Below are positions 1,792-43,593 of a stretch of 43,593 bases of DNA, one piece after another. The stretch comes from Nitrospinota bacterium (GTDB taxonomy: Bacteria; Nitrospinota_A; UBA7883; JACRGQ01), in the NCBI GenBank assembly GCA_016194375.1, contig JACQBU010000063.1, positions 1-43,593 of the forward strand, read 5' to 3'. Position 1 is the first letter of the stretch, and each line of letters starts with the position of its first letter. Position numbers and translations under genes: made by a program. A model generated the notes under the pieces. That model did no database searches. It was not told where the DNA came from and saw only the letters and a list, made by a program, of their open reading frames with translations.

Positions 1792-3162
1792 CTATTCCTT
1801 TATCCCGTGGCGTTCCAGCATTTTGTAAAGGACCGACCGGTGGATTCCCAGCATTTTGGCCGCCTTGAGCTTGTTGTTGCCTGTTTTTGCCAGCGCCTCG
1901 AGTAGCACCTTTTTTTTCGCGTCGCTTAACCGCATGACGTCCTCCCCGGAGCCGGACTGCTTGTGGTCAAAAAGATTCTGGGTCCTTATCTGTTTTACGT
2001 CTATGGCCTCGAGACCGGGAATCGCGTAACAGCTTTCAATCACGTTTTGCAGTTCCCTCACGTTTCCGGGCCAGTCGTATTCCACCATCGCCTCCAGCGC
2101 CTCCTCGGTGACGCCTTTTATGTTTTTTCCGAATTTATCGTTCAGCCTCGATATCGTAAACCGGGCCAGAAGCGGGATGTCCTCCTTGCGTTCGCGCAGT
2201 GGGGGGAGCTTGATGCCCAGCACGTTAAGCCTGTAATAAAGGTCCTGCCTAAGTTTGCCGGCCTTAACGCACTCCTCGACGTTCAAGTTTGTGGCGGCTA
2301 TGACGCGGACATCCACGGGAGTCTCCTCCACGCTCCCGACCATCCTCACGGTTCCCTCCTGGAGAACGCGCAACATTTTCGCCTGAACCTCCGCCGGCAT
2401 CTCGGTAATCTCGTCCAAAAAAAGGGTGCCGCCATCGGCCGCCCTGAACAGCCCCTCGGAAGCGGACTGCGCGCCCGTGAAGGCGCCCTTTTTATGGCCG
2501 AAAAGTTCGGATTCTATGAGCTCCTTTGGCAGGGCCGCGCAGTTCACCGCGACGAACGGCATGCTGGCGCGGGACGAGCCGTAATGAATCCCTTTGGCCA
2601 CGAGCTCCTTCCCGGTGCCGCTTTCGCCGCTGATGACAACCGGGCTGGTGATGCCGGAGGCGCCGCGCATCTTTTCGAACACTTCCTTCATCTTCGCGCT
2701 GGTGCCTATCATGTCGGCGTAACGCCCCTTTAGCTCGGCGGAAAGCCGTTTGATCTCCACGTCCTTTTTCTCAATCTGGTTTTTAAGGTCCTTAATCCGC
2801 AACATGGCGCCTATCCGGGCGGAAAGCTCGTCCATGTCGAAAGGTTTGTCGATGTAATCGTCCGCGCCCACGGAAAAACCCCTTATCCTGCTCTCCTTGT
2901 CGTCATTGGCGGTGAGCATAATTATCGGCAAAAAGACGCCCTTCGTGATTTCCCGCATCCGGGTGCAGGTCTCGAAACCGTCCATGCCGGGCATCATCAA
3001 ATCCAAGAGAACCAAGTCGGGCGACACGTCGGACAGAATTTTCAACGCCTCGGTTCCGTTCGAGGCGCAAACGGTTCCGTAATCCCGCCGCTCGAGACGA
3101 GACTCCAGAACAGCCCTGTTGTTTTCCTCGTCGTCAACAATAAGTATGAGAGGCCGTTTCAT
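1792..3162 (-). CDS. Sigma54-dependent response regulator (NtrC family: REC-AAA+-Fis HTH)
   Basis: REC domain, Walker A GESGTGKE, intact GAFTGA loop, FLDEI Walker B, WPGNVRELQN, C-terminal AAKMLGIHRSVLY HTH. Confidence 0.95.
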   Translation of the reverse strand: MKRPLILIVDDEENNRAVLESRLERRDYGTVCASNGTEALKILSDVSPDLVLLDLMMPGMDGFETCTRMREITKGVFLPIIMLTANDDKESRIRGFSVGADDYIDKPFDMDELSARIGAMLRIKDLKNQIEKKDVEIKRLSAELKGRYADMIGTSAKMKEVFEKMRGASGITSPVVISGESGTGKELVAKGIHYGSSRASMPFVAVNCAALPKELIESELFGHKKGAFTGAQSASEGLFRAADGGTLFLDEITEMPAEVQAKMLRVLQEGTVRMVGSVEETPVDVRVIAATNLNVEECVKAGKLRQDLYYRLNVLGIKLPPLRERKEDIPLLARFTISRLNDKFGKNIKGVTEEALEAMVEYDWPGNVRELQNVIESCYAIPGLEAIDVKQIRTQNLFDHKQSGSGEDVMRLSDAKKKVLLEALAKTGNNKLKAAKMLGIHRSVLYKMLERHGIKE

Positions 3163-3208: not shown

Positions 3209-3247
3209 TGTTTCAGGACACTTTCAAAAAAGACATGTTTCAGGACA
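3209..3247. promoter_or_regulatory. Two direct copies of TGTTTCAGGACA (3209-3220, 3236-3247); putative enhancer (UAS) for a sigma54 activator
   Basis: Identical 12-mer twice, ~93 bp upstream of a sigma54 promoter; third copy at 5875-5886 upstream of a second sigma54 promoter. Confidence 0.65.
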
Positions 3248-3339
3248 ATATTTTTTTTACATAATATTTTTTTTGTGTAATTTCGTATAAAGTCCTAATT
3301 TATGGCATTGTTTTATTGAGCGTTATCCTTGGATTTTTC

Positions 3340-3354
3340 TGGCACGCATCTTGC
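3340..3354 (+). promoter_or_regulatory. Sigma54 (-24/-12) promoter
   Basis: TGGCAC-GCATC-TTGC, exact TGGCAC-N5-TTGC consensus, ~60 bp upstream of ATG 3416. Confidence 0.85.
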
Positions 3355-3415
3355 CAAATAAATTGCACAGTGGTTGTTTGCAATTAATTTTTATTGTGTG
3401 AGGAAGAGGAAAGAC

Positions 3416-5797
3416 ATGAGTAAGCTGTCGTGCGCAGTTTCAATCCTCCTCTTATCCTTTATATTTTCGGCTTGTAACGGCAACGGCCCTTCCCAATCAT
3501 CGTCCGGTTCATCCCCCGGTTCGTCGTCCGGCTCCTCATCGGGCTCCGCGGCAAACTTAAACGGCTGGGCGCTTTTCGAGGTGAACACGGTTACGACACC
3601 GACGCAACCATCTCAGGTCAACCACAATGATTATTTGACCGGCTCTCATTCCAAATACACCTGCAACGACTGTCATTCGATGACGCAATCGGTTCCGATT
3701 AACAAGCCAGTCCAAGCATCCGGCACAACCAAGGCGACCATGGTTACCTCCTACGTCACAAGAGATCAGATATGCGCAACCTGTCATCCGTTTTCAAAAT
3801 ACACCTCCCTGCTGACCGACGTGGACCACGTGAAGGTTGGGGCGGGATCTCACTGCAACGGCTGTCATTTTTCCGCCCCCGGGGTGGCGGGCTCCGCGAT
3901 AACGGGCTGGAGATGGTCCTCGGCCTCGTCGGTCACCCGCATATCAAGCACCCTCTGGCACAAAGACGTGCAGGGTGTTTGCACAAACTGCCATTTGCCG
4001 GCCAACGCGCCGAAATATCCGGCGAACCATTACACCGGCGGTTGCGAAACCTGCCACACCTACAATAACGGCTCATGGGGCTCCGGCAAGGGACACCCGG
4101 CGGCGACGTCCGGATGCTCCGCCTGCCATCCGGCGCAAACCCACGGTCCGATAACCGGGTTTTCGGTGATCGCAGGCTCGCAGTTTGCGGGGGTGGATTG
4201 CTCCACCTGCCACCAGCCTTCCATCACCGCAAGCTACGCGAACTGGCTGGGCGCGCCCGGCACTGGTTTCCACGCCAACATCACCGGCCCCTGCCTTAAC
4301 TGCCACGCGCCGTCCGCCATACCGACTTATCCGTCGGGCCATTACGCCGCCGAATGCCAGAAGTGCCACACTTACAACGGAGGCTCTTGGAAGGGGGCGA
4401 CGGGACACATCGCGGCCACCACGGGGTGCCTGACCTGCCATTCCGCCCATCCGCACACGCTCGCCGGAACTTCCGTTACCCCGGGGACGGTGTTCGCCGG
4501 CGCGGACTGCTCCATATGCCACCAACCCTCCGTCGCCGCAAGTTATACAAACTGGCTCGGCGCGCCCGGCGTAGGTTTCCACGCCGGCTTAACCGGCGCA
4601 TGCACGAATTGTCACACCGCCTCCGCAATCCCGACTTATCCGACGGGCCATCACACCGCGGGATGCGAATCGTGCCACACGTACAACGGAGGCTCGTGGA
4701 AGGGGGCGACGGGACACCCGTCCGTGGCTTCCGGATGCCCGACTTGCCATACGCCGCACACCCACCTCGCGATTGCCGGGACTTCCGTCACGACCGGCGC
4801 GCAGTTTACGGGAGTTGATTGCGCCACCTGCCACCAGCCCTCCGTCGCCGCAAGCTACGCGAACTGGCTGGGGGCGCCCGGCGCCGGTTTCCACGCAGGC
4901 CTTACCGGTCCGTGTACGAACTGCCACACCCCCTCCGCAATCCCGACGTATCCGGCGGGCCATAACACCGCAGGATGCGAGAAGTGCCACACTTACAACA
5001 ACGGCTCGTGGAAGGGGCACCAGGCCGTAACCGCGGGTTGCGCGACCTGCCACGCCATTCATACCCACAACCCGATGACGGGGTATTCCGTGACAAACGG
5101 CGCGCAGTTCGCTGGTGTTGATTGCTCCACCTGCCACCAGCCCTCCGTCGCCGCAAGCTATACAAACTGGCTCGGAGCGCCCGGCGCCGGGTTCCATTCG
5201 GGCATAACGGCCCCGTGCCTAGACTGCCACACGCCGTCGGCCATACCGACCTATCCCTCGGGACATTACGCATCAGGTTGCGAGGCGTGCCACACCTACA
5301 ACGGCGGGTCATGGCTGGGGGCCGCGGGACATGCAAACGTAACCACCGGTTGCAACCGGTCCGGATGCCACGCGACGCACACCCACACCACGGTGTCAAG
5401 CGCCACGCTATTGTCCCCGGAAACCTTCAGCGGGATAAGTTGCGAAAACTGCCATTCGGCTTCAATAACTTCCGGGTACGCCAACTGGCTTGGCGCCGCG
5501 CACGAGGCCTCGCCGGCGGCATGCAACACGTGCCACGCAACGCACACCCATACGACGCTCGCGTCAGGCACCATCGCAAACGGCTCGACGTTCAGCCAGT
5601 TCAGCGGAACCGGTTGTGAAAAATGCCATGCCGCCTCGGCTCCGGGGTACGCAAGCTGGCTTGGCGCCGGAAGCGGCGCGCTTCACATGACAACCCCCCC
5701 CGCTTGCAACACCTGCCACCAGAAACACAACAACACCAAAAATTGTATAAATTGCCACACCAACACCTTCTACCAATGGACTGGCGCCGGCGGCTAA
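3416..5797 (+). CDS. Large multiheme c-type cytochrome lipoprotein (26 CxxCH + 1 CxxxxCH)
   Basis: Start moved to ATG 3416 (AGGA RBS); signal MSKLSCAVSILLLSFIFSA-C lipobox, Ser-rich linker; heme motifs counted by eye; ~104-aa internal repeats. Confidence 0.92.
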   Translation: MSKLSCAVSILLLSFIFSACNGNGPSQSSSGSSPGSSSGSSSGSAANLNGWALFEVNTVTTPTQPSQVNHNDYLTGSHSKYTCNDCHSMTQSVPINKPVQASGTTKATMVTSYVTRDQICATCHPFSKYTSLLTDVDHVKVGAGSHCNGCHFSAPGVAGSAITGWRWSSASSVTRISSTLWHKDVQGVCTNCHLPANAPKYPANHYTGGCETCHTYNNGSWGSGKGHPAATSGCSACHPAQTHGPITGFSVIAGSQFAGVDCSTCHQPSITASYANWLGAPGTGFHANITGPCLNCHAPSAIPTYPSGHYAAECQKCHTYNGGSWKGATGHIAATTGCLTCHSAHPHTLAGTSVTPGTVFAGADCSICHQPSVAASYTNWLGAPGVGFHAGLTGACTNCHTASAIPTYPTGHHTAGCESCHTYNGGSWKGATGHPSVASGCPTCHTPHTHLAIAGTSVTTGAQFTGVDCATCHQPSVAASYANWLGAPGAGFHAGLTGPCTNCHTPSAIPTYPAGHNTAGCEKCHTYNNGSWKGHQAVTAGCATCHAIHTHNPMTGYSVTNGAQFAGVDCSTCHQPSVAASYTNWLGAPGAGFHSGITAPCLDCHTPSAIPTYPSGHYASGCEACHTYNGGSWLGAAGHANVTTGCNRSGCHATHTHTTVSSATLLSPETFSGISCENCHSASITSGYANWLGAAHEASPAACNTCHATHTHTTLASGTIANGSTFSQFSGTGCEKCHAASAPGYASWLGAGSGALHMTTPPACNTCHQKHNNTKNCINCHTNTFYQWTGAGG
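3980..5500 (+). repeat. Intragenic tandem repeat, ~303-318 bp period, about 5 units, four heme motifs per unit
   Basis: Equivalent Cys codons (CxxCHQPS-type motif) at 4199, 4508, 4820, 5123, 5441; repeated blocks NWLGAPGxGFH, SAIPTYPxGH, CHTYNxGSW. Confidence 0.9.
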
Positions 5798-5874
5798 CCC
5801 AAACGTCGTTTATTCCGTCAAAACCACTGGAGGCGAGCAAAACCGTTCCCACCTTTTTTTATAGAAATTTGTAT

Positions 5875-5886
5875 TGTTTCAGGACA
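5875..5886. promoter_or_regulatory. Third TGTTTCAGGACA copy (putative UAS)
   Basis: Identical to 3209-3220 (shared extension TGTTTCAGGACACTT), ~91 bp upstream of the sigma54 motif at 5977. Confidence 0.6.
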
Positions 5887-5976
5887 CTTATCGTAAAAGG
5901 CCCGTTTCCTAAGGCCGAATAATTCATCTGCCAATCATAACGCCTTGATTATCCTAAGTCTCGTAGCCATTGATTT

Positions 5977-5991
5977 TGGCATATGGTTTGC
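5977..5991 (+). promoter_or_regulatory. Sigma54 (-24/-12) promoter
   Basis: TGGCAT-ATGGT-TTGC with correct GG-N10-GC spacing. Confidence 0.75.
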
Positions 5992-6051
5992 CTTATTGGT
6001 ATCTGCCCAATGGAATGTGATAATTTAATTCAAATGTTGAGGATAAAATTG

Positions 6052-6891
6052 GTGATTGGAAAAAACCTGTCTTCTCGCGCGACTGTTTTCCTGGCGGCTC
6101 TGTTATTACTGCCAATCCTTGGTTGCGGCGAAGGCCACCCCACCATCCAGCCGTCCGGCGGAGGAGGCGGGGGCACCGTGACCGACTGGTCCACCCTAAG
6201 GGTTAACACGGTTTCCTCGGGAACGACCGTTTCCTCGGTTGACCACAAGGACTATCTTGCAGGCTCCCATTCCGCATACCAGTGCTCTGCCTGTCATTCA
6301 ATAACCCAAACCGACCCTGCGACCAACCAGACCGTGGACGTGGCGAGGGACAAAATTTGCGCGTATTGCCACCCGTTTTCCAACTATACTTCCATAATGA
6401 CCAACGTGAACCACACGACCCTAAAGACGGGAACGCACTGCAACGCCTGTCACTATTCCGCGTCCGGGGCGGCCGGCTCGACGGTCAGCGGCTGGAGATG
6501 GCCGTCCGTGGCGGGTTCAAAAACCCGGATTCCTCCCTCGCAGTGGCACAGCAACGTGAAGGGAACCTGCCTTAACTGCCACACGGCCTCGAACGAGTCA
6601 ATCCCGGCGGCGCACCCGACGATAACCCCGACCACGGCGTGCGAAACCTGCCATTATTATAGCAACGGAAAATGGGCGGGACAACACGCGCCGTACACCG
6701 CCGGGTGCCGCGCCATCGGTTGCCACAGCGGCCACTACAGCCCGTACAACTGCGAATGGTGCCACACCACGGTCGCGGCAAACGGGTATTTAAGCTGGGC
6801 ATTGTCGTTCGGCGATTCGCACCGGAGGGACTTTGACCAGCGCTCATGCTCGGCGTGCCACGCTGGCGGCGGAGGGGGAGGAGGAGATTGA
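6052..6891 (+). CDS. Multiheme c-type cytochrome lipoprotein (7 CxxCH + 1 CxxxxCH), short paralog of 3416-5797
   Basis: Lipobox ILG-C, Gly linker; N-terminal region aligns by eye with the large cytochrome (VNTV, DYLxGSHS, RDxICxxCHPFS, GWRW). Start uncertain (6034 ATG, 6049 TTG or 6052 GTG); ATG 5983 lies inside the sigma54 promoter. Confidence 0.88.
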   Translation: MIGKNLSSRATVFLAALLLLPILGCGEGHPTIQPSGGGGGGTVTDWSTLRVNTVSSGTTVSSVDHKDYLAGSHSAYQCSACHSITQTDPATNQTVDVARDKICAYCHPFSNYTSIMTNVNHTTLKTGTHCNACHYSASGAAGSTVSGWRWPSVAGSKTRIPPSQWHSNVKGTCLNCHTASNESIPAAHPTITPTTACETCHYYSNGKWAGQHAPYTAGCRAIGCHSGHYSPYNCEWCHTTVAANGYLSWALSFGDSHRRDFDQRSCSACHAGGGGGGGD

Positions 6892-6893
6892 CC

Positions 6894-7994
6894 ATGAGAA
6901 AAGGGATGTTTTTCGCCGCGACGCTTTTCTTGGCGGAGTTGTTTTTGAGCGCCAGTCCGGCGTTCGCAATCGACCTGTCCAAAATAAGCTTTAACGGATA
7001 CGTAGACGTTGAGTACAGTACCGCGGACAACGCCGAGGGAAATTACAACAGCTCCTTCCACATGCACCACCTCAGCTTCCTGCTGGACGTGCCGATTACC
7101 GACAAGCTTTCCACCTACGCCCACGTCGAGTTCGACCACGGCACAAACATCGGCACTTCGTCCGTAAACAAGACCGGCGCGCCCGTGGGGGGGGGCGACT
7201 TGGTGGTCGAAAACGCATTCATAAGGTACGTCTCGTCGGACGCGGTGCAGTTCCGGGTCGGGAGGATGCTGACCCCCTTCGGCTACTATAACGAGATACA
7301 CGACGCGACTCCCACCATCATTTCCTTCGCGGTGCCGAGAGCCATCAACAATATGGAAGACAGGGGCGGAACCACGATGTTCCCCAGATGGAACACCGGA
7401 GTGGGTATGCTCGGGACGGTTTTGCTTGGTTCCTCCACGCTGGACTACATCATGTACGTGGGAAACGGCGAGAACCCGCCTGGATTGAACGACTCGGAGT
7501 CCGACGCAAATCCCAACAAGGCTTTTGGCGCGAGGGTGAATTTCCAGCCGAACGAGCGCATGCAGATAGGAGCCTCGGTTTACAGCGGGGAGCGGGCCTT
7601 CCAAACGACGACAATCGCGCCTATTCAAAACGGGCCGCATAACACGGGCGGGCTTTTGTTCGCCCTAAACGGCGAGAAGTGTTCTTTCCTATCCGAGTAC
7701 GCGGTGTCGCAGGAACAGGGGTTCACCGAGTCGGCCGGTTACGGTCAGCTCACATATCGGCTTTTAAAGCGGCTTTCAGCCTATTACAGGCTTGAATATT
7801 CGAACCCCAACCAGTCCGTTTCCGACGACGCATGGGTCGAGCACATAGCCGGCCTGAATTTCATGCCCATGAACATATCGAACATAGTTCTCAAATTCGA
7901 GCTTTCGGACAACATCAGGGGAGCAAACAACGCGGCCGTGACGAGAGACCTTATCTACAAGGAAGCGCGCTTTGCGGTCACGTTATTTTTCTAG
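6894..7994 (+). CDS. Outer-membrane beta-barrel porin
   Basis: Sec signal ending AFA, alternating amphipathic beta-strand pattern (FNGYVDVEY, YAHVEFDH, QFRVGRMLTPFG), C-terminal Phe (AVTLFF); starts 2 bp after cytochrome stop. Confidence 0.8.
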   Translation: MRKGMFFAATLFLAELFLSASPAFAIDLSKISFNGYVDVEYSTADNAEGNYNSSFHMHHLSFLLDVPITDKLSTYAHVEFDHGTNIGTSSVNKTGAPVGGGDLVVENAFIRYVSSDAVQFRVGRMLTPFGYYNEIHDATPTIISFAVPRAINNMEDRGGTTMFPRWNTGVGMLGTVLLGSSTLDYIMYVGNGENPPGLNDSESDANPNKAFGARVNFQPNERMQIGASVYSGERAFQTTTIAPIQNGPHNTGGLLFALNGEKCSFLSEYAVSQEQGFTESAGYGQLTYRLLKRLSAYYRLEYSNPNQSVSDDAWVEHIAGLNFMPMNISNIVLKFELSDNIRGANNAAVTRDLIYKEARFAVTLFF

Positions 7995-8430
7995 CCGGAG
8001 TCTTCTCAAGGCTTCGATCGTCGCGCTTGCGCTATCCCTGGCCTTCGCGGACAAGGCGTTCGCCGAGCTGATCGTAATCGTCAACAAGGACAACCCCGCG
8101 ACAGCGTTTCGGGCGGCCGACCTTAGGAGGATTTACAACGGCGGGAAAAGGATGTTCGAAAACGGCGTTGTCATCCAGCCCGCGAACCTTGCGTCGGACA
8201 ACCCCCTTGGAAAGGATTTTTTCATCAGCGTGCTTCATATAGACGCCGAGTCGTACAGGCTTTTCTGGGTTAGGATGATATTTTCCGGAAAGGGAAGGCC
8301 GCCCGTCGAGTTTGAGACGGAGCAAGAGGCGATAAAATTTGTGGCGGCAAACAAAGGGGGGCTGGCGTTCGTGGACTCGCCCAACGCGACCGACGCGGTA
8401 AAAACGGTCAAAATTATATTTGATGACTAA
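7972..8430 (+). CDS. Small exported periplasmic-binding-protein-like protein (often labelled phosphate ABC substrate-binding-like)
   Basis: Signal peptide ending AFA; VIVNKDNP, LRRIYNG, WVRMIFSGKGRPP, VAANKGGLAFV motifs typical of the small PBP-like proteins that follow such porins. Confidence 0.7.
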   Translation: MRSRYFSSRSLLKASIVALALSLAFADKAFAELIVIVNKDNPATAFRAADLRRIYNGGKRMFENGVVIQPANLASDNPLGKDFFISVLHIDAESYRLFWVRMIFSGKGRPPVEFETEQEAIKFVAANKGGLAFVDSPNATDAVKTVKIIFDD

Positions 8431-9846
8431 AGGCGGCGGAGGCGGGCCTTTATTTCGCCCGACCATAGGCGCGAGATTGTGGGGGATTCTGGCGTTCTTC
8501 CTGCTGGCGATGGTGCTGGGCATAATCGCCACGTACACGGGGACAAGGCCAACTGGGACGAATACTCGTCCCTTCGGCAGGATTTCCACGATTATTTTTC
8601 CGCCGCGTACTCGGTAGACAAGAGTCTTATACAAGAGGGCCTGTTTTCCCCGGCAATACAGAAAAACGTCGAGAAGGTCGGCATCCTTCTTCCAAAACTG
8701 CACGGACGGATAGACAGGGCGATAAACACCAAATACGCGCTTTTCGAGCGCATGATATCCGTCTCCAAAAAGGAGGCGGCGGGCATAATAATAGAACAGA
8801 CCCTTTTTCTCGTGACGTTGGCGCTGGCGGGTTTTGTGCTCGTGTTCGCCGTCATCCGGAGCATCATCAAGCCTATAACGTCGCTCGTGGCGGCCACAAA
8901 GGAGCTGGGGGCGGGCAAGCTGGACGTGAGGATCAACGTGAAATCCGCAGACGAAATCGGCGACCTGGGGGTTTCATTCAACGCCATGGCGGACAGGCTT
9001 AAGGAGGACCGGGACAGCCTGAGGGACCTGCTCGAAGAGCGTGAAAAAATGCAAAAGGTGATTTTAAAAACCAACAAAAACCTTAAGGAGGCGAATAGTC
9101 TGCTTCAGCAGGCCGACGTCGCCAAAACCAACTTCCTCGCCAGCATGTCCCACGAACTGCGTACTCCGCTCAACGCGATGATAAATTTTACCGCGCTGGT
9201 GATTGAGGACTGGGACGACCTGAAAACCGACGAGAAGTGGTTCGCAAAGGCAAAGGACATGCTCGAACGGGTCAAAAGCTCGAGCTACCACCTTCTTGAC
9301 ATGATAAACGACATCCTCGACCTCGCAAAAATAGAGTCGGGAAAAATGACGCTCGACCTGCAGGAGGCCGACCTGGCCGAGATAGCGGGGGATTGCGCGG
9401 CGTCGCTCGAGTCGCTGGCGAAAAAGAAAGACTTGCGGCTAATCCTGAACGTCGAGAAGACCCCCAATCCGATAATTTGTGACAGACGCAAGGTCAAGCA
9501 AATAGTCCTGAACCTTCTGGGCAACGCGATAAAGTTCACCGACTCCGGGCAAATAACCGTTTCCGTCCGCAGGGAGGGGGCGGACGAACGTTGGTACGCC
9601 CTGGAGGTTGCCGACACCGGCATAGGAATAGACCCCAAACATCAACAAATCATCTTTAACCGGTTCGAGCAGGTGGACAACTCCGACACCCGTCTGCACG
9701 CCGGCACGGGGCTGGGCCTAAACCTGGTGAAGGAGCTGACCGAAATGCACGGGGGAAAAGTAGCCGTGGAAAGCGAACCGGGCAAGGGCTCCGTCTTTAC
9801 GGTCCATTTGCCGGACAGGGCGATTCCGCCGGTTCACGCGATTTAA
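8423..9846 (+). pseudogene. HAMP sensor histidine kinase, frameshifted/internally deleted near 8540
   Basis: First TM helix in frame 8423-8540; remainder (short periplasmic segment, TM2, HAMP, H-box MSHELRTPLN, N/G1/F/G2 boxes) in a different frame to 9846. Confidence 0.75.
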
Positions 9847-10121: not shown

Positions 10122-11024
10122 CTAACCGGACGTTTTTATCCGGTTTCGCCCCTCTTTTTTGGCCTCGTAAAGGAGGTCGTCGGCCCTCTTTACCAGGGTT
10201 GTGAACGTCTCTCCGTCGGATGGAGTCGTGGTCGAAACCCCCATGCTCAACGTTACGCATTTGCACACCGTCGACTTCTCGTTGGCGATATTTAGGTTGG
10301 CGACGGCCTGTTGAAATGTTCTTGCGACCGAATACGCCCCCTCCGCCGAGGTGTTCGGAAGGATGCACGCAAACTCCTCCCCGCCGTATCTTGCAACCAT
10401 GTCGGAGGGCCTGTGCAGGCTCTCCTCGAGGCATCGGGCGATTTTCCTCAGGCAGTCGTCGCCCGGCAGGTGGCCGTATTTGTCGTTGAAAGGCTTAAAA
10501 AAGTCTATGTCCATCAATATCAGCGAAATCGGTTTTTGTTCGCGATGCATCCTGGACCACTCCTTGGCGAGCACGTCGTCAAAACATCTCCTGTTGTTTA
10601 TTCCGGTCAGGCCGTCCTTCATGGTCTGGTGTTCCAATTCGTCGCGGTATTGCTTAAGGACGAGGTGAGTCTTGACCCTCGCCCTGACCAAGGAAATGTT
10701 GAACGGCTTTGTTATGTAGTCCACCGCCCCGACCTCGAACCCCATGGCCTCGTCCTCCTCGGAACCCAATGCCGTGACGAAGATGACCGGAATGGATTTG
10801 CTTTCCTGAATGGACTTGAGCGCCACACAAACGGCGTACCCGTCCATCTCCGGCATCATGACGTCAAGAAGTATCAAATCGGGTTGTTTTGACTGCGCAA
10901 TGTCCAGAGCTTCCCTGCCGGAATAGGCCGTTAACACGTCGCAGTCGTTTTTGAGGGCTTCCTTAAGAACCCAAATATTGGGCGGGGTGTCGTCAACAAT
11001 TAGAACCGATTGTTTTTTAATCAT
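10122..11024 (-). CDS. Response regulator diguanylate cyclase (REC-GGDEF)
   Basis: REC domain; DGLTGINNRR, DIDFFKPFND, RPSD I-site, GGEEF active site. Confidence 0.95.
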   Translation of the reverse strand: MIKKQSVLIVDDTPPNIWVLKEALKNDCDVLTAYSGREALDIAQSKQPDLILLDVMMPEMDGYAVCVALKSIQESKSIPVIFVTALGSEEDEAMGFEVGAVDYITKPFNISLVRARVKTHLVLKQYRDELEHQTMKDGLTGINNRRCFDDVLAKEWSRMHREQKPISLILMDIDFFKPFNDKYGHLPGDDCLRKIARCLEESLHRPSDMVARYGGEEFACILPNTSAEGAYSVARTFQQAVANLNIANEKSTVCKCVTLSMGVSTTTPSDGETFTTLVKRADDLLYEAKKEGRNRIKTSG

Positions 11025-19107: not shown

Positions 19108-20292
19108 ATGGAGCGAAGGGTCATTCACCTCAACGTGGCCGATTTTGCCGTGGCGGTTGAGAGGAGGGCGGACAGGAGGCTTGGCACACGCGCCGTCATA
19201 GTTTCGCCGGGCGGGGCTAGGTCGGTGGTTTATGACATGAGCGACGAGGCGTATCGCGACGGGGTGCGAAAGGGGATGGCGTTGGGGCGCGCCAAGCGGC
19301 TCGTCCGCACGGCCGCCGTCGTCCCGCCCAAACCGGACCTCTACGAGCGCGCCATGAAAGCCTTTGTCAGGCACGTTTTTCCGTTTTCCCCGTTGGTCGA
19401 GCACGGTGGGTGGGACGGCCACGTTTTTTTGGACGTCACGGGGGTTCGCCGACTTTTCGGCCCGCCGCAGGACATAGCTCAACGGATACGCCGCTCGGTG
19501 GCGCGCGACATGTCGCTGACCCCGGCCTGGGCGGTGGCCTCCAACAAGCTGGCCTCCAAAGTGGCCACGCGGCTCGTCAAACCGCGGGGCGAATGCGTCG
19601 TGGGGGAGGGGGGGGAGGGGAGGCTCGTGGAACCCGTGCCGTTGCGCATGCTACCCGGCCTGCTCGACTCGGAAATCACGCGGCTAAGGGAGCTGAACAT
19701 AACCAGGGCGGGGGAGGCGCGCGCGTTCTCAATGCAAAACCTCGAGACGCTGGTCGGCTCCCGCGCCCGCCTACTGTACGAGGCCGTGCGCGGCGCGGAC
19801 GACTCGCCGGTGCTTGCCGCCGGCTCCGTCGGGGACGCGGCCGAGGCGGACTATGCGTTCAACGGCGACACGAACGACGTCGCCGTCGTGGAGTCGGCGT
19901 TGCGCCTTTGCGCGGAGGGGATCGGCCGGGAATTGCGGAAAAAACGGCTGTCCGCCGGAAGCATCGTCGTTACGGCGGACTATTGCGACGGGATCCGCTC
20001 GACAAGGCGCGTGGCGCTCGGTCCCGGGTCGTCCAACAACGGACTGTTCGAGTGCGCGCTCAAGGGGCTTCGGATCGCGTGGTCGCGCAGGGTGCGCCTG
20101 CGCCACATCCGGCTGAGGGGGGAGGGGTTGCGCGTGGTTCCGGTCCAACTGGAGCTTTTCGGGGGGCGCGACGAAAAGGCGCTCCGCGATTCGGCGCTGG
20201 ACTCCGCCGTTGATTCCCTGCTGGAGCGTTTCGGCAAAAACGCCGCGATGTCGGGAAAATGTTTTTTGGCAAGGCCGGAGCAGGACGTTTGA
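19108..20292 (+). CDS. imuB: Y-family polymerase-like protein, ImuB-like (catalytic residues degenerate)
   Basis: HLNVADFAVAVE (cf. DinB HVDMDAF), GGWDGHVFLD replacing SIDEAFLD, NKLASKVA, QLELF clamp motif; immediately upstream of dnaE2. Confidence 0.75.
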   Translation: MERRVIHLNVADFAVAVERRADRRLGTRAVIVSPGGARSVVYDMSDEAYRDGVRKGMALGRAKRLVRTAAVVPPKPDLYERAMKAFVRHVFPFSPLVEHGGWDGHVFLDVTGVRRLFGPPQDIAQRIRRSVARDMSLTPAWAVASNKLASKVATRLVKPRGECVVGEGGEGRLVEPVPLRMLPGLLDSEITRLRELNITRAGEARAFSMQNLETLVGSRARLLYEAVRGADDSPVLAAGSVGDAAEADYAFNGDTNDVAVVESALRLCAEGIGRELRKKRLSAGSIVVTADYCDGIRSTRRVALGPGSSNNGLFECALKGLRIAWSRRVRLRHIRLRGEGLRVVPVQLELFGGRDEKALRDSALDSAVDSLLERFGKNAAMSGKCFLARPEQDV

Positions 20293-20316
20293 CATTATCA
20301 AGAGTGGTTTAACGCG

Positions 20317-23286
20317 TTGATTCCCTTGGTCGTGCGTTCGCATTATTCCCTGATGCGGGGAACCGCGCCCGTGGACGAATTGGTGCGTCACGCCGCCAAG
20401 CTCGGATACCGGACGCTGGCGCTCACCGACATGGACAACCTGTACGGCCTTTGGTCGTTCCTAAAATCGTGCAAAATTCACGGCGTCAGGCCCGTGGTCG
20501 GGGCGCAGATAACCGACCCGTCGTCCGACATGCTGGTCGCGTGCCTCGTTAAAAGCCAAACGGGGTACGAAAACCTGTGCCAAATCATCACGGCCCGAAA
20601 AATAAAAAAAGGTTTCGACGTCGGGAACGAACTTGAAAACTTGGGGGAGGGGCTTTGCATCCTGACAAACGACGGCGGCCTTCTGGGGCGTTTGCGCGAA
20701 GCCGGGCTGGACGCGTATGCGGCGATTCCCAGAAAGCCGGCGGCGGATTCCGCCGACCTGCGGAAGACGGCCGTTAAAATCGGGGCGCCGGTCGTCGCCG
20801 CCCCGGACAATTTTTTCCTGAATCCGGGCGGGTTGAAACTGCACTTGCTTCTGCGTGCCATCGCGCTAAACAGCTCCTTGTCGAGGCTGGAAAGCGGGGA
20901 CGCGGCGTCCGCCGACGCGTGGCTGTCGTCGCCGAAGGAATACGAAAAACGGTTTTCCATCCTGCCGGAGGCGCTGGAAGAAACGCACGGAATCGCCGAG
21001 CGGTGCGAATTCACGGGGCCGGACACGACCACCGTCTTCCCGCCGTGGGACGGCGGCGGCAGGACGGCAGGCGACGTCCTGCGCGAGACCGCGTACGCCG
21101 GCGCGGAAAAAAGATACGGCGCCCCGCCCGGCGCCGAGGTGAAAAAGCGGCTTGAGTACGAGCTTGGGATAATCTCCCAAAAGGGCTTTTCCGAATACTT
21201 CCTCGTGGTGCGGGACATAGTCCTTCGCAGTCCGCGCATATGCGGCAGGGGCTCCGGCGCGGCCTCGCTCGTGGCGTACTGCCTGGAAATCACCAACGTA
21301 TGCCCGATGAAGAACAACCTATATTTCGAGCGGTTCCTAAACCCGGGGCGGAAGGACCCGCCGGACATAGACGTCGATTTCGCGTGGGACGAGCGCGCCG
21401 ACGTCATAGCCTCGGTTTTGAGGCAGTACGAGGGGCGCTCGGCGATGGTCTGCAACCACGTTTTTTTCCAGCCCCGAATGGCGATACGAGAAACGGCCAA
21501 GGTCTTCGGGCTGGGCGCGGGGGAGATAGCGGAGGTCGCCGACAAGGTGCCGTGGTTCAGGCGGCAGGGGGACGAGGGCCTTCTAGAGGGGTTGCGGCGC
21601 CTGCCGAACACGCGGGGGCTCGGGTTCGGCGAGCCGTGGCCGGAGATACTGCGCCTTGCCGGCCGGCTCGTGGGGACGCCCAGGAACATCTCCGTGCATC
21701 CCGGCGGGGTGGTCATAACCCCCGGCCCGATAAGCCAACGCGCGCCTTTGGAGCTAAAGCTGGACGGCGTGCCGGTCATACAATGGGAAAAGGACGGCGC
21801 GGAGGAGGCGGGGCTGGTAAAAATAGACCTTCTTGGCAACAGGAGCCTCGGCGTCATACGCGACGCGATCGACAACATCCGCGCAGACGACCGGGCGTTC
21901 GACGAGGGGCGCTGGGAGCCGGAGGAGGACGAGGCGACGCGCTCGACGGTGGCGAAGGGGCTTACGATGGGCTGTTTTTACATAGAAAGCCCCGCCATGC
22001 GCCTTTTGCAGGAGAAGTCGGGAAAGGGGGACTTCAACCACCTAGTCATCCACAGCTCCATCATACGGCCCGCGGCGAACGAGTTCATACGGGAATACCT
22101 CCTGCGGCTACGCGGCGCCGGGTGGAAACCGATTCATCCCTTGCTCGACGGCGTGCTGGACGAGACCTTCGGCATAATGGTGTACCAGGAGGACGTGTCG
22201 CGTGTGGCGGTGGCGCTGGCCGGATTCTCGCATTCCGACGCCGACCGCCTGAGGAAGATAATGTCGAAAAAGGAGAAGGAGCTCGAACTGAACGACTTCC
22301 GCCAGAAATTCGAACGGGGCGCGATGCTAAACGGGGCGACCAAGGAACAGGTTGAGGAAATATGGCGCATGATATTGAGTTTCGACGGTTATTCGTTCTG
22401 CAAGCCGCACAGCGCGAGCTATGCGCGGGTGTCGTTCCAGGCGGCGTATTTGAAGACGCATTTCCCGGCGGAGTTCATGGCGGCGGTGATAAGCAACCAA
22501 GGGGGCTTTTACAGCGCGTTCGCCTACGTATCCGAGGCGAAGCGGCTCGGGTGCAAAATATTGCCGCCGGACGTCAATAAAAGCGGCGTTAAATGGCACG
22601 GCCACGACCGTTGCCTGCGCGTTGGACTGCTTTCGGTAAAAAACCTAGGCGGCGAAACTGCGGGGCGGATGGCGGCGGAGCGCGAACACGGCTTGTACAA
22701 AGATTTTGACGATTTTATGGCAAGGGTTCGTCCGGCCGAGGACGAGGCGCGCGCCCTGATATTTTGCGGCGCGTTTGACGAGGTCGAGCCGTTAAAATCG
22801 CGTGCGGACCTATTGTGGTTGCTTGCAAGTCGGCGAAAGTCGGACGGCGACGGTCTTGACACCGGAGTCGGAGGCGCGTCGGGGGCGCCGCCCAAATTGC
22901 CGCCGGACGACGAAACGGGGCTTTTGCGGCGGCAATATTCGACCCTCGGCTTTTTGTGCGACCATCATCCGATAATTTTTTACGACAGCGCCCGCGTAGA
23001 CGCGCGGTCGGTCAAGGCGGCGGACGTAAGGCGAATGGTCGGCAAAACGGCGAGCTTCGCCGGATGGCTGATCACCGGCAAGGTCGTCACCACAAAACAC
23101 GGGGAGCCGATGGAGTTTTTAACGTTTGAAGACGAGACGGGGGTGTTGGAGACGGTGTTTTTCCCCAAAACGTACCGAAAGTTCTGCTCGATACTGGACA
23201 GCCACAGGCCGTATTTGTTGAGGGGCAAGGTTGAGGAGGATTTTGGGGCCGTAACCATGTCCGTAAACGACGTCAGGGCCTTGTAG
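20317..23286 (+). CDS. dnaE2: Error-prone DNA polymerase III alpha-like DnaE2 (ImuC)
   Basis: PHP-like N-terminus (RSHYSL), GRGSGAAS, PPDIDVDF, KIDLLG, GYSFCKPHSASYA, C-terminal OB fold; operonic with imuB-like gene; separate housekeeping dnaE in window. Confidence 0.88.
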   Translation: MIPLVVRSHYSLMRGTAPVDELVRHAAKLGYRTLALTDMDNLYGLWSFLKSCKIHGVRPVVGAQITDPSSDMLVACLVKSQTGYENLCQIITARKIKKGFDVGNELENLGEGLCILTNDGGLLGRLREAGLDAYAAIPRKPAADSADLRKTAVKIGAPVVAAPDNFFLNPGGLKLHLLLRAIALNSSLSRLESGDAASADAWLSSPKEYEKRFSILPEALEETHGIAERCEFTGPDTTTVFPPWDGGGRTAGDVLRETAYAGAEKRYGAPPGAEVKKRLEYELGIISQKGFSEYFLVVRDIVLRSPRICGRGSGAASLVAYCLEITNVCPMKNNLYFERFLNPGRKDPPDIDVDFAWDERADVIASVLRQYEGRSAMVCNHVFFQPRMAIRETAKVFGLGAGEIAEVADKVPWFRRQGDEGLLEGLRRLPNTRGLGFGEPWPEILRLAGRLVGTPRNISVHPGGVVITPGPISQRAPLELKLDGVPVIQWEKDGAEEAGLVKIDLLGNRSLGVIRDAIDNIRADDRAFDEGRWEPEEDEATRSTVAKGLTMGCFYIESPAMRLLQEKSGKGDFNHLVIHSSIIRPAANEFIREYLLRLRGAGWKPIHPLLDGVLDETFGIMVYQEDVSRVAVALAGFSHSDADRLRKIMSKKEKELELNDFRQKFERGAMLNGATKEQVEEIWRMILSFDGYSFCKPHSASYARVSFQAAYLKTHFPAEFMAAVISNQGGFYSAFAYVSEAKRLGCKILPPDVNKSGVKWHGHDRCLRVGLLSVKNLGGETAGRMAAEREHGLYKDFDDFMARVRPAEDEARALIFCGAFDEVEPLKSRADLLWLLASRRKSDGDGLDTGVGGASGAPPKLPPDDETGLLRRQYSTLGFLCDHHPIIFYDSARVDARSVKAADVRRMVGKTASFAGWLITGKVVTTKHGEPMEFLTFEDETGVLETVFFPKTYRKFCSILDSHRPYLLRGKVEEDFGAVTMSVNDVRAL

Positions 23287-40616: not shown

Positions 40617-43517
40617 TCACGAGCAATAGACCGAATCGGCGCCCAGGACTTCCTCCACTTCGGCGAGAAAGGCCTCGCTTGCGCTCACCTTGTATTTGTC
40701 CGACGCGCCCACGCGAAGCCTGCTTTTGTCCGGGAAGGTGAAATAAAGCACGAGCCTGCTCGCGCCCTTGTGCCTGGATGCGATTTCTTTTAATTCCTCC
40801 AGCGCCGGTTCCTCGAGCCCCACGATGTTGATGTTCAGGTGCACGGCGCCCGTAAGCTTCTCCTTGGCCTTCATTATTGGCAGTATCTCATCGGCTATTA
40901 TCTTTACGTCGGTCTCGTCCTTGTCGGTCTTGCCGCGCACGAAGACCGGCTCGTTGGACTCTAGCAACCGGGCGGTTTGCGAGAACAGCTCCGGCCACAC
41001 CAACATTTTCACGCTTCCGGTCAGGTCCTCCAGCGTCACGTGGGCCATCGTCTCCTTTTTTTTCGTCATCTGGGTCCTCAGCGCGCTGACCACCCCGCAG
41101 AGCCTGACCTCGCGCTTGTTCTCCACCTCTCCGATTGTCGCCGCATGATGCGTCACCAGCAGTCTCATGTCCCTCTTGTGCCGCTCGAGAGGGTGGCCTG
41201 AGATGTAGAACCCGAGGGTCTCCTTCTCGTAGTCAAGCCGCGTCCGCTCCGGCCATTCCTCGGCCGGCTTGATGAGCCGAGCCGCCCTCTCCTCCTCCGT
41301 CTCGATTTGGGCGAACATGTTGGCCTGCCCCTTTTTTAGGTCGTCGCGGGCGGCGGCGGCCTCGCGGATGACGTCGTCAAGCGAGGCGAATATCTGAGCG
41401 CGGTTCGGGTGCAGGGCGTCGAACGCGCCACATTTTATGAGAGCCTCGAGCACCCTTCGGTTGACCTGCCTCATGTCCAGCCGCCGGGAGAAATCGGGAA
41501 ACGACCGAAAAGCGCCCCCCTCCCCCCGCGCGCGAATTATCTCCTCGACTCCGGCGACTCCCACGCCCTTCACGGCGGCGAGCCCGAATATTATGGCGTC
41601 GCCCGAGACGGTGAATTTGGCGACGCTTCTGTTGATGTCCGGCGGAGAAACGGTGATGCCCATCTCCCTGCACTCGCTAAGGTATTGGACGACCCTGTCC
41701 GTGTCGTCCATTTCGCTCGTCAAAAGCGAGGCCATGTACTCGCGCGGGTGGTGCGCCTTGAGATACGCGGTCTGGTAGCTCAACAGCGCGTATGCGGCGG
41801 AGTGGGACTTGTTGAAGCCGTATCCGCCGAACTTCTCGATGAGGTCGAACACGGCCCCGGCCTTTTTCGGGTCTATCTTTTTCGTCTTGGCGCCGCTTAC
41901 AAACGCGTCCCGCTGGGCCGCCATGACGTCCTTGTCCTTCTTTCCCATGGCCTTTCTCAACGTGTCCGCCTGCGCCATGGTGAACCCCGCCAGCTCGTTG
42001 GCGAGTTTCATCACCTGCTCCTGATACACCATTACTCCATACGTCTCGGCCAGGGCGTCGTTCATTTGGGGCAGGATGTTCTCCACCTTCTCCAGGCCGT
42101 GCTTTCTCTTGATGAAGGAGTCGACCATGCCGCTCTCAAGGGGGCCGGGGCGAAAAAGTGCCACGAGTGCGATGATGTCAGTGAACGCCTGAGCCTTTAG
42201 CTTTCGCAGTATGTCCCTCATTCCTGACGACTCCAGCTGGAATATTCCGAGCGTCTTTGCGGACGAGAGAAGCGCGAACGTGGCCGGGTCGTCCATCGGG
42301 AGCTTGCGTACGAAGAAGTCGGGGTTTTTTGTCGCCCTCACGAGCTTTTCGGTCCAGTCGATCACCGTGAGCGTCCGAAGGCCGAGGAAATCCATCTTAA
42401 GGAGGCCCAGCTTTTCTATGTCGGTCATCGAAAACTGGGTCACGACGTCCCCCTTGCTGGTTTTAAACAGCGGCAGGAAATCCGTGAGGTTCGAGGGCGC
42501 GATGACGACTCCGGCGGCGTGGGTCGAGGCGTGTCTTGAAAGCCCCTCGAGCACCCTGGCTATCTCCATCAGTTTCTTGACCCTCGGATCCTTCTTTTCC
42601 ATTTCGGGGAGCCTTTTCTCGGCCTTCATCGCCTTCTCGATGGTCATGTCCGGAGCCTCCGGCACGAGCTTGGCTATCTGGTCCACCTCGCCATACGGAA
42701 GCTCGAGAACGCGCCCGACGTCGCGTATCACCCCGCGGGCCTTCATGGTGCCGAAGGTTATTATCTGCGCCACGTTGTCGGCGCCGTATTTCTCTCGGAC
42801 GTATTTGATCACTTCGTCGCGCCTGTCCATGCAGAAGTCAATGTCTATGTCCGGCATTGAAATGCGGTCCGGATTTAAAAACCGCTCGAATAGTAGCCCG
42901 TATTTCATCGGGTCTATGTCGGTTATGCCCAGGGAGTACGCGACCAAGCTTCCCGCCGCGCTTCCCCTGCCCGGCCCGACCGGTATTCCGCGCTTTTTGG
43001 CCTCCTCGATGAAGTCCCAGACGATGAGGAAGTAGCCGGCAAAATTCATCTTCTTTATGACTTCCAGTTCGAGCGCCACCCTTTCCCTATACCCCGCCTC
43101 CGAATCGGGCGCGGCGTTTCCGGAGTCCGCCAGCCTATCCGATAGATTGTGGGCCACGAGGTCCTCAAGGTACTGGCCCGGCGTTTCGTCGCCCGGAACT
43201 GAGTATGCCGGCAGGTGGTACTGGCCCAGCCTGAAGTCAATGTTGCACTTGTCCGCCACCTCCCGGGTGTTTTTTATGGCTTCGGGCAGTTCGGAGAAAA
43301 GCGCCCGCATTTCGTCCGCCGACTTCACGTAAAATTCCCCGGCGCCGTACCTGAGCCGGTTGGCGTCGCCCAACAGCTTGCCGGTGCCGATGCACAATAG
43401 GGCGTCGTGCGCCTCCCAATGCCTTTTCTCAAGGTAGTGGCAGTCGTTTGTGGCCACCAGCCTCACCTCGTGCTTTTTTGACATCTGCACGACCGCCTGG
43501 TTCACCTTCGCCTGCGC
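40617..43517 (-). CDS. dnaE: DNA polymerase III alpha subunit (5'-partial; most of PHP domain absent)
   Basis: ATNDCHY, GPGRGSAAGS, PDIDIDF, HAAGVVI, KMDFLGL, YGFNKSHSAAY, OB fold. Confidence 0.95.
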   Translation of the reverse strand, partial: AQAKVNQAVVQMSKKHEVRLVATNDCHYLEKRHWEAHDALLCIGTGKLLGDANRLRYGAGEFYVKSADEMRALFSELPEAIKNTREVADKCNIDFRLGQYHLPAYSVPGDETPGQYLEDLVAHNLSDRLADSGNAAPDSEAGYRERVALELEVIKKMNFAGYFLIVWDFIEEAKKRGIPVGPGRGSAAGSLVAYSLGITDIDPMKYGLLFERFLNPDRISMPDIDIDFCMDRRDEVIKYVREKYGADNVAQIITFGTMKARGVIRDVGRVLELPYGEVDQIAKLVPEAPDMTIEKAMKAEKRLPEMEKKDPRVKKLMEIARVLEGLSRHASTHAAGVVIAPSNLTDFLPLFKTSKGDVVTQFSMTDIEKLGLLKMDFLGLRTLTVIDWTEKLVRATKNPDFFVRKLPMDDPATFALLSSAKTLGIFQLESSGMRDILRKLKAQAFTDIIALVALFRPGPLESGMVDSFIKRKHGLEKVENILPQMNDALAETYGVMVYQEQVMKLANELAGFTMAQADTLRKAMGKKDKDVMAAQRDAFVSGAKTKKIDPKKAGAVFDLIEKFGGYGFNKSHSAAYALLSYQTAYLKAHHPREYMASLLTSEMDDTDRVVQYLSECREMGITVSPPDINRSVAKFTVSGDAIIFGLAAVKGVGVAGVEEIIRARGEGGAFRSFPDFSRRLDMRQVNRRVLEALIKCGAFDALHPNRAQIFASLDDVIREAAAARDDLKKGQANMFAQIETEEERAARLIKPAEEWPERTRLDYEKETLGFYISGHPLERHKRDMRLLVTHHAATIGEVENKREVRLCGVVSALRTQMTKKKETMAHVTLEDLTGSVKMLVWPELFSQTARLLESNEPVFVRGKTDKDETDVKIIADEILPIMKAKEKLTGAVHLNINIVGLEEPALEELKEIASRHKGASRLVLYFTFPDKSRLRVGASDKYKVSASEAFLAEVEEVLGADSVYCS

Positions 43518-43593
43518 CGACGAGCGGGCCATCGAGTCCTTCAACGACGAAGCGATGGCCGGGCTCAAGCTCGGCGAAGTCCGGGAATTCACC

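Follow-up and report, generated by a model that had tools for sequence, protein, structure and literature searches.

A predicted 27-heme lipoprotein cytochrome built from tandem four-heme units in a Nitrospinota bacterium

We analyzed a contig of 43,593 nucleotides from a Nitrospinota bacterium (JACQBU010000063.1 of assembly GCA_016194375.1), referred to below as the window, and in particular the gene at 3416..5797 on its forward strand, whose 793-residue product we named W27. The translation is free of stops over 794 codons and contains 26 CxxCH motifs and one Cx4CH motif (residue 646), giving 27 heme sites behind a signal peptide with a lipobox, the arrangement expected of a c-type multiheme lipoprotein cytochrome. 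The Pfam family Cytochrome_C7 matches the protein over nine stretches (1.3e-26), and the residue counts are 61 His, 56 Cys, and 5 Met. An earlier note on this locus had put the heme density at about one per 30 residues; the measured value is 29.4 (793/27), and 26 residues per heme are found within the repeated units described below. The start codon, ATG at 3416, is preceded by a strong ribosome site, GAGGAAGAGGAAAG, and the N-terminus of an ortholog, M27, begins in the same way as that of W27. Therefore, the later start in the protein collection, which yields a protein of 705 residues (P0002), is best explained as a choice of the gene caller.

The features of W27 follow one another along the forward strand. 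The lipoprotein signal peptide (3416..3475), with the sequence MSKLSCAVSILLLSFIFSAC, has a hydrophobic stretch at residues 4-22 and a lipobox, FSAC, ending at Cys20; this cysteine is conserved in the family alignment, and its lipidation is predicted. The residue at position +2 after the lipid-bearing cysteine is Asn, not Asp. A flexible tether of 27 residues rich in Ser, Gly, and Asn (3476..3556, residues 21-47) comes next and includes a 12-nucleotide tandem repeat at 3497-3531. It leads to an N-terminal three-heme module (3557..3958, residues 48-181, with hemes at residues 83, 120, and 147), which contains the best Cytochrome_C7 stretch (residues 76-151) and is common to all members of the family. 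Five four-heme units are then delimited by the unit alignment and the unit profile: unit 1 (3959..4270, residues 182-285), unit 2 (4271..4579, residues 286-388), unit 3 (4580..4891, residues 389-492), unit 4 (4892..5194, residues 493-593), and unit 5 (5195..5500, residues 594-695), the last including the Cx4CH site. The C-terminal four-heme segment (5501..5794, residues 696-793) consists of a degenerate sixth half unit, matched by the unit profile at residues 695-752 (3.6e-13), and a tail with two closely spaced hemes; it resembles the C-terminus of a short relative, P0026 (41% identity). The overall layout is thus three hemes, five times four hemes, and a final four. In the mature protein Thr, Ala, Gly, and Ser account for 12.5, 12.3, 12.2, and 10.9% of residues, or 48% together. 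The Ser/Thr-Pro-Ser/Thr 'hematite-binding' motif occurs three times against 2.3 expected in the mature protein and is thus not enriched.

About five tandem four-heme repeats had been described in the earlier note, and both the unit alignment and Tandem Repeats Finder (period of 303-312 nucleotides, 3.8-4.0 copies, 73-74% matches over 4090-5331) agree with that description. The five full units are 101-104 residues long with four heme motifs each, and 36 of the 106 columns of their alignment are invariant. The same note had called the similarity of the units at the DNA level high, which proved to be an overstatement: the units are 46-78% identical in protein and 57-80% in DNA, and exact words common to two units reach 34 nucleotides at most (units 3 and 4), with maxima of 10-25 nucleotides for the other pairs. 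On this comparison W27 is modular, its units evidently having arisen by tandem duplication of a four-heme unit. A possible two-fold (diheme) symmetry within the unit is not claimed, as the hhalign comparison gave only a 15-column match around one heme motif at a probability of 68%.

To find the conserved residues we aligned 13 units from W27, its ortholog M27, and a paralog, M16. All 13 preserve the four heme motifs and two Trp residues without exception. The additional histidines that the earlier note had listed as candidate distal ligands are indeed sufficient in number and almost always kept: GFH and GH in 13 of 13 units, and PxGH and HxH in 12 of 13. Methionine is conserved nowhere in these units, each of which has zero or one Met, never at an aligned column. 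Since each unit combines four hemes with four spare conserved histidines and has no conserved Met, we infer from these residue counts that bis-His ligation of the unit hemes, as the note had proposed, is the simplest reading. The hemes of W27 are probably low-spin and all bis-His.

The repeat array could in principle be an error of assembly, or the frame a chance opening in a pseudogene. The window comes from a fragmented metagenome-assembled genome (135 contigs, low read depth of 3-9), and the later start chosen by the gene caller for P0002 would fit that view as well. We compared positions 3300-6000 with Logan contigs from four groundwater-metagenome runs of one study, which may include the window's own sample and thus represent a second assembler rather than independent DNA. 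Contigs from run X1 match 3300-5012 and 5250-5935 with no differences and bridge the junctions between units 1 and 2, 2 and 3, and 3 and 4, while a contig from run X2 (5182-5452) bridges the junction between units 4 and 5; the sole stretch lacking contig cover is 5164-5181. Hence every unit junction was reproduced without differences by a second assembler. Furthermore, the units differ from each other by 20-43% in DNA, so that their collapse or expansion during assembly would not be easy, and no stop interrupts the 794 codons. M27 (P0003, locus L016), which comes from another metagenome, is 64% identical to W27 (495 of 771 aligned positions) and falls into the same length class; 27 of 27 heme motifs are retained in it, as are 29 of the 34 other histidines. 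An artefact or a pseudogene is very improbable in our estimate and already largely refuted; to judge from these comparisons, W27 is an intact, real gene under selection.

A word-based search of 5.8 billion proteins gave eight matches at E <= 0.001 among 7,998 scored candidates. A search of 1.84 billion representatives with the unit profile returned 297 matches at E <= 0.001, seven of them at E <= 1e-30. The strong matches to the unit profile are mostly giant cytochromes with other types of repeats. We therefore counted as true family members only proteins that share the N-terminal module of W27, and these are few: M27, M16, P0026, P0038, P0104, P0048, P0034, and a fragment, P0118. Within the phylum, 17 of 33 species genomes, including the window's own, have a match at E <= 1e-10, nearly all of them through lipoproteins of 250-370 residues with 8-13 heme sites. 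A scan of genome contigs found only two distant loci (L001 and L002), which were left out of the later comparisons. The common plan seen in the family alignment is a lipobox, a linker of Gly, Ser, and Thr, the three-heme module, and then the units. Many short members end in a poly-Gly or poly-Asp/Glu tail (GGGGGGGD, runs of D), which is absent from W27 and M27. No NCBIfam model scores above its cut-off for W27, and the protein lies outside the MtrA/DmsE decaheme family TIGR03508 (58.8 bits against a cut-off of 192.2). The W27 family is a sequence family that has no curated model.

The number of units varies across the family, as follows: about 5.5 in W27 and M27, three in M16, two in P0038, one in P0026 and P0104, and less than one in M8 and in W8, a paralog encoded directly downstream of W27. 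At locus L017 a third paralog (P0004, 20-1564) with 16 heme sites and three units lies between the 27-heme and 8-heme genes; the genome of the window has no such 16-heme, three-unit gene. The inner units resemble their neighbors in the same protein (78% for units 3 and 4 of W27 and 82% for units 2 and 3 of M27) more than their positional partners in the ortholog (65-68%), and units 1 and 2 of M16 are also 78% identical to each other. The first and last units of W27 and M27 pair by position (support of 89). This homogeneity of the inner units points to recombination or conversion within an old array. In addition, W27 looks like a mosaic in sequence comparisons. The W8/M16 group is the closest match to its N-terminal module (46-56% identity, versus 31% to P0026), while its last unit and tail are nearest to P0026 (50% and 41%, versus 36% and 25% to W8). 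In a sister genome (G003), the gene for P0026 adjoins those for a periplasmic cytochrome and a porin.

The earlier note had further proposed that the array can change its length by recombination between repeats, and this claim holds in part. The unit number does range from less than one to about 5.5 in the family, and the inner units are homogenized. Moreover, in a contig of 228 nucleotides from run X3 (depth 2.7), unit 2 runs into unit 3 in frame and in register, at a place shifted by 312 nucleotides, exactly one unit: 38 letters misfit before 4829, of which the 30 shown equal 4487-4516 in unit 2, and the contig then continues along 4829-5018. Identity between the units at the join extends over only 8 and 17 letters, below the requirement of a 31-mer graph. 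The join could be a one-unit-shorter or gene-converted variant in the sample, or a library chimera. Two points weigh against length switching: the join rests on a single low-depth record, and both known long forms, W27 and M27, have 27 sites and 5.5 units despite 36% divergence, so that their array appears stable across a long divergence. Frequent homologous recombination is also disfavoured, because the units are only 57-80% identical in DNA. Duplication would thus have built the array long ago, with some later conversion, and ongoing length switching is unproven.

The structure predictions were too poor to show the linear shape that the earlier note had proposed. AlphaFold2 returned an unusable model for the whole of W27 (nine-row alignment, mean per-residue confidence, pLDDT, of 39.8) and a poor one for residues 48-388 with the 43-row family alignment A4 (pLDDT 62.5, predicted template-modelling score 0.36). 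Its best part is the N-terminal module (block means of 60-84 for model residues 11-80, corresponding to residues 58-127). Foldseek found no match at E <= 0.001 for this model in PDB, the top row being GSU1996 (3ov0) with an E value of 2.8 and a template-modelling (TM) score of 0.14, and VIA-align 2 gave none of 48,161 chains with Z >= 2. A predicted complex of the neighboring barrel with W8 scored 0.00, with the fold of the partner uncertain, and was not used as evidence. At the sequence level, the single W27 sequence had no matches in PDB, while the profile of the A4 alignment matched the 16-heme cytochrome HmcA (2e84 at 7.3e-21, 1gws at 3.8e-16, 1h29 at 4.4e-13, and 1z1n at 2.7e-12), followed by MtrC (7.7e-11), GSU1996 (2.5e-10), and the MtrA chain of 6r2q. 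Collinearity with HmcA extends from the signal peptide over the three-heme start to six more motifs, for a total of nine heme motifs. The unit profile alone gave weak matches to the MtrA chain (3.2e-4) and NrfB (4.2e-3) and did not find HmcA. Because the HMMER bias terms are large, we read the HmcA match as a sign of distant homology inside the c3/c7/Hmc class rather than of membership.

The gene of W27 stands in a cluster with probable regulators and envelope proteins. Upstream of it and divergent is a gene for a sigma-54-dependent response regulator (1792..3162, reverse strand) with receiver, AAA+ sigma-54 activator, and Fis-type helix-turn-helix domains (Pfam Response_reg 1.1e-30, Sigma54_activat 6.6e-69, and HTH_8 1e-08), orthologs of which lie beside cytochrome genes at L016, L030, and L036. 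The regulator gene is adjoined by one encoding a receiver fused to an adenylate/guanylate cyclase domain (198-1769). A sigma-54 type promoter, TGGCAC-N5-TTGC (3340..3354, forward strand), is found 62 nucleotides upstream of the W27 start codon, and a second one, TGGCAT-N5-TTGC (5977..5991, forward strand), before W8. The pattern TGGCAY-N5-TTGC thus has two matches in the window against 0.13 expected, a number reached in none of 100 shuffles, and nine matches in the whole genome of 1.9 Mb. Upstream of the first promoter are two exact copies of GTTTCAGGACA (3210-3220 and 3237-3247, within 3210..3247 of the forward strand), which we regard as putative enhancer sites for the regulator, and a third copy lies before W8 (5876..5886, forward strand). 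These three exact copies compare with 0.66 expected in the window when up to one mismatch is allowed, and the entire genome has only four.

Downstream, the forward strand encodes W8 (6034..6891), an 8-heme lipoprotein of 285 residues with seven CxxCH motifs and one Cx4CH motif, a lipobox ILGC, and a Gly linker; W8 and W27 share 51% identity in their N-terminal modules. Next comes a predicted outer-membrane beta-barrel (6894..7994) with the C-terminal signal FAVTLFF, which resembles the OprO/P and BBP2 types by Pfam matches that fall below the curated cut-offs (BBP2 2e-05, Porin_O_P 4.4e-04; an ortholog scores 1.3e-06). Six orthologs of the barrel align at 47-70% identity, and an unusual invariant cluster of histidines (FHxHHLSF, EFDHG, NE[IV]HD) is present in six of six aligned orthologs. 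The next gene (7972..8430) encodes a small secreted protein of 152 residues that has no Pfam match and was placed as PBP_like_2-like (a 'phosphate-binding protein' half-domain) by the Atlas search alone, which uses language-model features and predicted structure (feature score 0.96, TM 0.76-0.82). Its counterpart follows the porin at L017, L030, L033, L034, and L035. Since it is always located between the barrel and a histidine kinase, this protein may be the periplasmic ligand sensor of the kinase. The sensor histidine kinase itself (8479..9846, with HAMP, HisKA, and HATPase_c domains by Pfam) keeps its position at L017 and L033-L035. Farther along the window are a receiver-GGDEF protein (10122-11024), a likely mutagenesis cassette of an ImuB-like (IMS family) protein and a DnaE2-type polymerase (19108-23286), and a second DnaE-type polymerase III alpha gene (40617-43592) that continues past the window end. 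Overall, the window outside the cluster is made up of housekeeping genes (glutamate synthase, PPK2, a SurA-like chaperone, a XerC/D-type recombinase, DnaE, ImuB-DnaE2, FliD, glycogen phosphorylase, and UvrD). No obvious mobile element carries the W27 cluster.

Comparison of the family loci revealed two arrangements. In the first type, present in four genomes of the phylum (L023, L028, L031, and L032), the family lipoprotein with 8-12 hemes comes first and is followed by a large non-lipoprotein cytochrome (763-999 residues, 27-36 heme sites) and a porin of about 420 residues; at L031 these genes are preceded by a kinase and a sigma-54 regulator. The second type, found in the window and at L017, L030, L033, L034, and L035, starts with family lipoproteins, one to three in number, and continues with the OprP-like barrel and then the small protein, with the kinase next in all cases except L030, where the contig stops after the small protein. 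At L016 and L036 the regulator is followed by genes for an inner-membrane protein of about 300 residues and an Fe-S/FAD oxidoreductase with an N-terminal membrane helix, which are divergent from the cytochrome gene. The inner-membrane protein (L016 4465-5358, L036 2572-3480, L023 11589-12482, and contig C23 of the window's genome, L021, 912-1847 on the reverse strand) has a weak Ferric_reduct match, and the gene after it encodes a membrane-anchored 2x[4Fe-4S] and FAD/NAD(P) oxidoreductase. Contig C23 thus holds a 311-residue inner-membrane protein and the start of a flavoprotein. No other frame in the genome has two WX3HX13H motifs, and the protein also has SGFLG on its fourth hydrophobic stretch; a strict hydropathy scan finds three segments in it, and the motif-bearing stretches are weaker. 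Another contig of the same genome, C33 (L022, 1785-4500, reverse strand), encodes a large periplasmic-type cytochrome as two overlapping frames with 12 and 17 CxxCH motifs. This non-lipoprotein cytochrome of about 29 hemes is accompanied by a 428-residue porin and no lipoprotein gene, with sigma-54 promoter matches at 4417 and 4601, at the start of the cytochrome gene. The two frames share a repeated peptide at the break; either the gene is frameshifted or the assembly slipped within repeats. Altogether the genome has 11 reading frames with at least three CxxCH motifs, and it encodes a putative cbb3-type oxidase fusion (C7 sequence, recognized by eye).

Based on these data, we consider it somewhat more probable than the contrary that W27 is the outer, cell-surface cytochrome of a trans-envelope electron conduit, lengthened to 27 hemes. 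W27 is read as the surface-side wire because a gene of its family leads the porin-cytochrome cluster in relatives, frequently with a PCC3-type di-heme-b inner-membrane protein and an Fe-S flavoprotein in the vicinity. In this scheme, for which we infer the surface location, the direction of electron flow, and the elongated shape, the protein would be anchored by its lipid and the flexible Ser-rich tether and would carry the three-heme head, the five units, and the degenerate unit; it would be an outer cytochrome whose heme number rose in this lineage from about 8-12 to 27. Electrons would hop from heme to heme over about 20 nm, from the outer-membrane conduit to an external mineral or partner, and the adjacent kinase and sigma-54 regulator would switch expression through the two sigma-54 promoters that share the upstream repeats. 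The length follows from a published relation in which elongated cytochromes have an edge-to-edge length that is linear with heme number, about 27 hemes corresponding to about 200 Å (PMC7096707). Several observations weigh against this assignment. Both cytochromes of the window are lipoproteins, and the sequence does not decide the leaflet. The adjacent barrel is of the OprO/P- or BBP2-like diffusion-porin type, not the porin of about 420 residues seen in relatives, and together with the PBP-like protein and the kinase it may form a sensing module rather than a sheath. The presumed partners are on other contigs in this genome (C33 and C23), and the C33 cytochrome, split as it is into two overlapping frames, may be broken or misassembled. 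Finally, the poor models support neither an elongated nor a globular shape, and the heme-rich composition inflates profile matches, as seen in HMMER bias values of 18-27 bits.

A different placement would make W27 a tethered wire that spans the periplasm of roughly 20 nm, anchored either in the outer membrane's inner leaflet or in the inner membrane, and that directly links the ferric-reductase-like protein and the Fe-S flavoprotein to the outer membrane, where the OprP-like porin would admit a soluble redox substrate. The diffusion-porin type of the barrel suits this proposal, as do the inner-membrane protein/flavoprotein operon that abuts the W27 ortholog at L016 and the lack of any soluble periplasmic cytochrome encoded in the window cluster. 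It also has published parallels: about 27 hemes are estimated to span a periplasm of 200 Å in the account of PMC7096707, and periplasmic cytochromes of the PCC3 type, with 21-27 hemes, are described as proposed to span it (PMC10734462). However, four relatives pair the family lipoprotein with a separate soluble cytochrome of 27-36 hemes that fits the periplasmic role, such a large cytochrome is kept here on C33, and Asn rather than Asp at position +2 disfavours retention in the inner membrane. The retention rule for Asp at +2 is that of E. coli lipoproteins and may not apply in this phylum. On balance we regard a periplasmic wire as rather unlikely. A speculative variant, in which we place little confidence, makes W27 a length-tuned periplasmic bridge to the outer membrane from a NOX/ferric-reductase-like exporter, made up of a cytoplasmic Fe-S flavoprotein and a di-heme-b membrane protein, so that electrons of NAD(P)H would leave the cell and bypass the quinone pool. 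The length of such a bridge would occasionally be reset by the gain or loss of a 104-residue unit, and resetting at the population level is hinted at by the in-register hybrid of units 2 and 3 in the X3 contig. It is likewise improbable that W27 serves mainly as an electron store, or capacitor, that buffers the cell when acceptors are scarce. Such a role is proposed, in the accounts consulted, for the periplasmic dodecaheme GSU1996 (PMC10138318) and for large PCC3 cytochromes (PMC10734462), and the very high heme density of the units (26 residues per heme) would favour it. Yet a positioned conductor is a better fit to a protein with a lipid anchor and a tether whose gene has its own regulation next to envelope components, and a genome with only 11 frames of at least three CxxCH motifs is not that of a cytochrome-rich organism with storage proteins to spare. 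The surface-exposed outer cytochrome thus remains our preferred interpretation of W27.

Among known systems, the PCC3 clusters provide a close parallel to this interpretation. Their extracellular cytochromes are described as repeat-built and rich in Thr, Ser, Ala, and Gly, their clusters as containing a periplasmic cytochrome with a median of 21 hemes and a porin, and the inner-membrane protein of PCC3 and PCC4 as a protein of about 300 residues with five transmembrane (TM) helices, SGxxG in TM4, and WX3HX13H in TM3 and TM5 (He et al. 2017, PMC5566968). According to a later account the extracellular subunit has 10-35 hemes and the periplasmic one 21-27, and their models are long and linear (Hoover et al. 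2023, PMC10734462). Similarly, W27 is repeat-built (5.5 repeats), has a low ratio of residues to hemes and 48% Thr, Ala, Gly, and Ser, varies in heme number among relatives, and has a porin gene in its cluster. The genome encodes an inner-membrane protein of about 300 residues with SGxxG and two WX3HX13H motifs, which is adjacent to the cluster at L016 and L036, and periplasmic cytochromes of 27-36 hemes with their own porin occur in the same phylum and genome. In contrast to PCC3, the host belongs to a small phylum (33 species genomes searched) and not to Proteobacteria, the unit of W27 is a 104-residue four-heme block, and the parts are spread over three contigs. Its barrel is OprO/P- or BBP2-like and accompanied by a PBP-like protein, a histidine kinase, and a sigma-54 regulator. 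The second cytochrome of the window is an 8-heme lipoprotein, whereas the three-gene row is contiguous at L023, L028, L031, and L032. The likeness is drawn from published descriptions and not from sequence homology to PCC3 proteins such as those of Sideroxydans ES-1.

The Geobacter Pcc system, OmbB-OmaB-OmcB, shares with our locus the combination of a lipoprotein cytochrome and a porin-like protein, with a periplasmic cytochrome in relatives, and also an atypical heme motif in the outer cytochrome, a feature stressed in its description (Shi et al. 2014, PMC4245776) and represented by Cx4CH in W27. It differs in scale, as OmcB and OmaB are given 12 and 8 hemes in that source, compared with 27 in W27 and 27-36 in the periplasmic cytochrome of relatives. 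No NCBIfam or PDB sequence match ties W27 to Geobacter proteins. A porin-like protein of 18-22 strands beside the cytochromes is typical of the Geobacter system; a barrel gene does adjoin the cytochrome genes here, and weak Pfam matches liken its product to the OprO/P or BBP2 types. The polymers of cytochrome c7, namely GSU1996 and GSU0592 (12 hemes each) and GSU2210 (27 hemes), are described as concatenations of small multiheme modules (PMC10138318). Cytochrome_C7 matches W27 partially, along nine stretches, GSU2210 equals it in heme number, and GSU1996 is both a remote profile match (2.5e-10) and the non-significant top row of Foldseek. The domains of these polymers are described as having three hemes, one of them His-Met ligated (PMC10138318), in contrast to the four-heme units of W27 with no conserved Met. 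They are also soluble and periplasmic, whereas W27 is a predicted lipoprotein.

The 16-heme HmcA of Desulfovibrio (2e84, 1gws, 1h29, and 1z1n) is the best solved relative of the family profile. It is a soluble protein with a fixed number of 16 hemes, has three-heme and then four-heme modules in the order seen in W27, and belongs to the operon of the hmc membrane complex. W27 has 27 hemes and shows none of this operon context; its gene lies among those for its paralog, the porin-like barrel, the PBP-like protein, and the two-component system. HmcA is also named as the largest solved single-chain cytochrome in a preprint that describes module grafting and pruning as a mode of cytochrome evolution (bioRxiv 10.1101/2025.05.29.656830), and another preprint reports long single-chain 'nanowire' clusters in Desulfuromonadia, one of them with 27 hemes (bioRxiv 10.1101/2024.01.05.574438). 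In the literature searched, supplements aside, we found no relevant named four-heme repeat unit and no description of the W27 family. Repeat-built, length-variable wire cytochromes are thus already published (PCC3, GSU1996/GSU2210), and what is particular to W27 is an uncurated family, a regular 104-residue four-heme unit of apparent bis-His type, the lipid anchor, the sigma-54/two-component control, and the small phylum.

Cytochromes that hold dozens of hemes on a single chain are believed to conduct electrons across tens of nanometers, and none of the PCC3 type is known to have been tested. W27 is a compact and regular case, in which a three-heme head is followed by units of the same architecture, with relatives that have about 1, 2, 3, and 5.5 of them. 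With this natural series of units one could test cleanly how conduction length, redox behavior, and function depend on the number of modules. If our interpretation is correct, wiring of the porin-cytochrome type with a PCC3-type inner-membrane protein would extend to a small and poorly known groundwater phylum and to a genome of only 1.9 Mb with 11 multiheme candidates.

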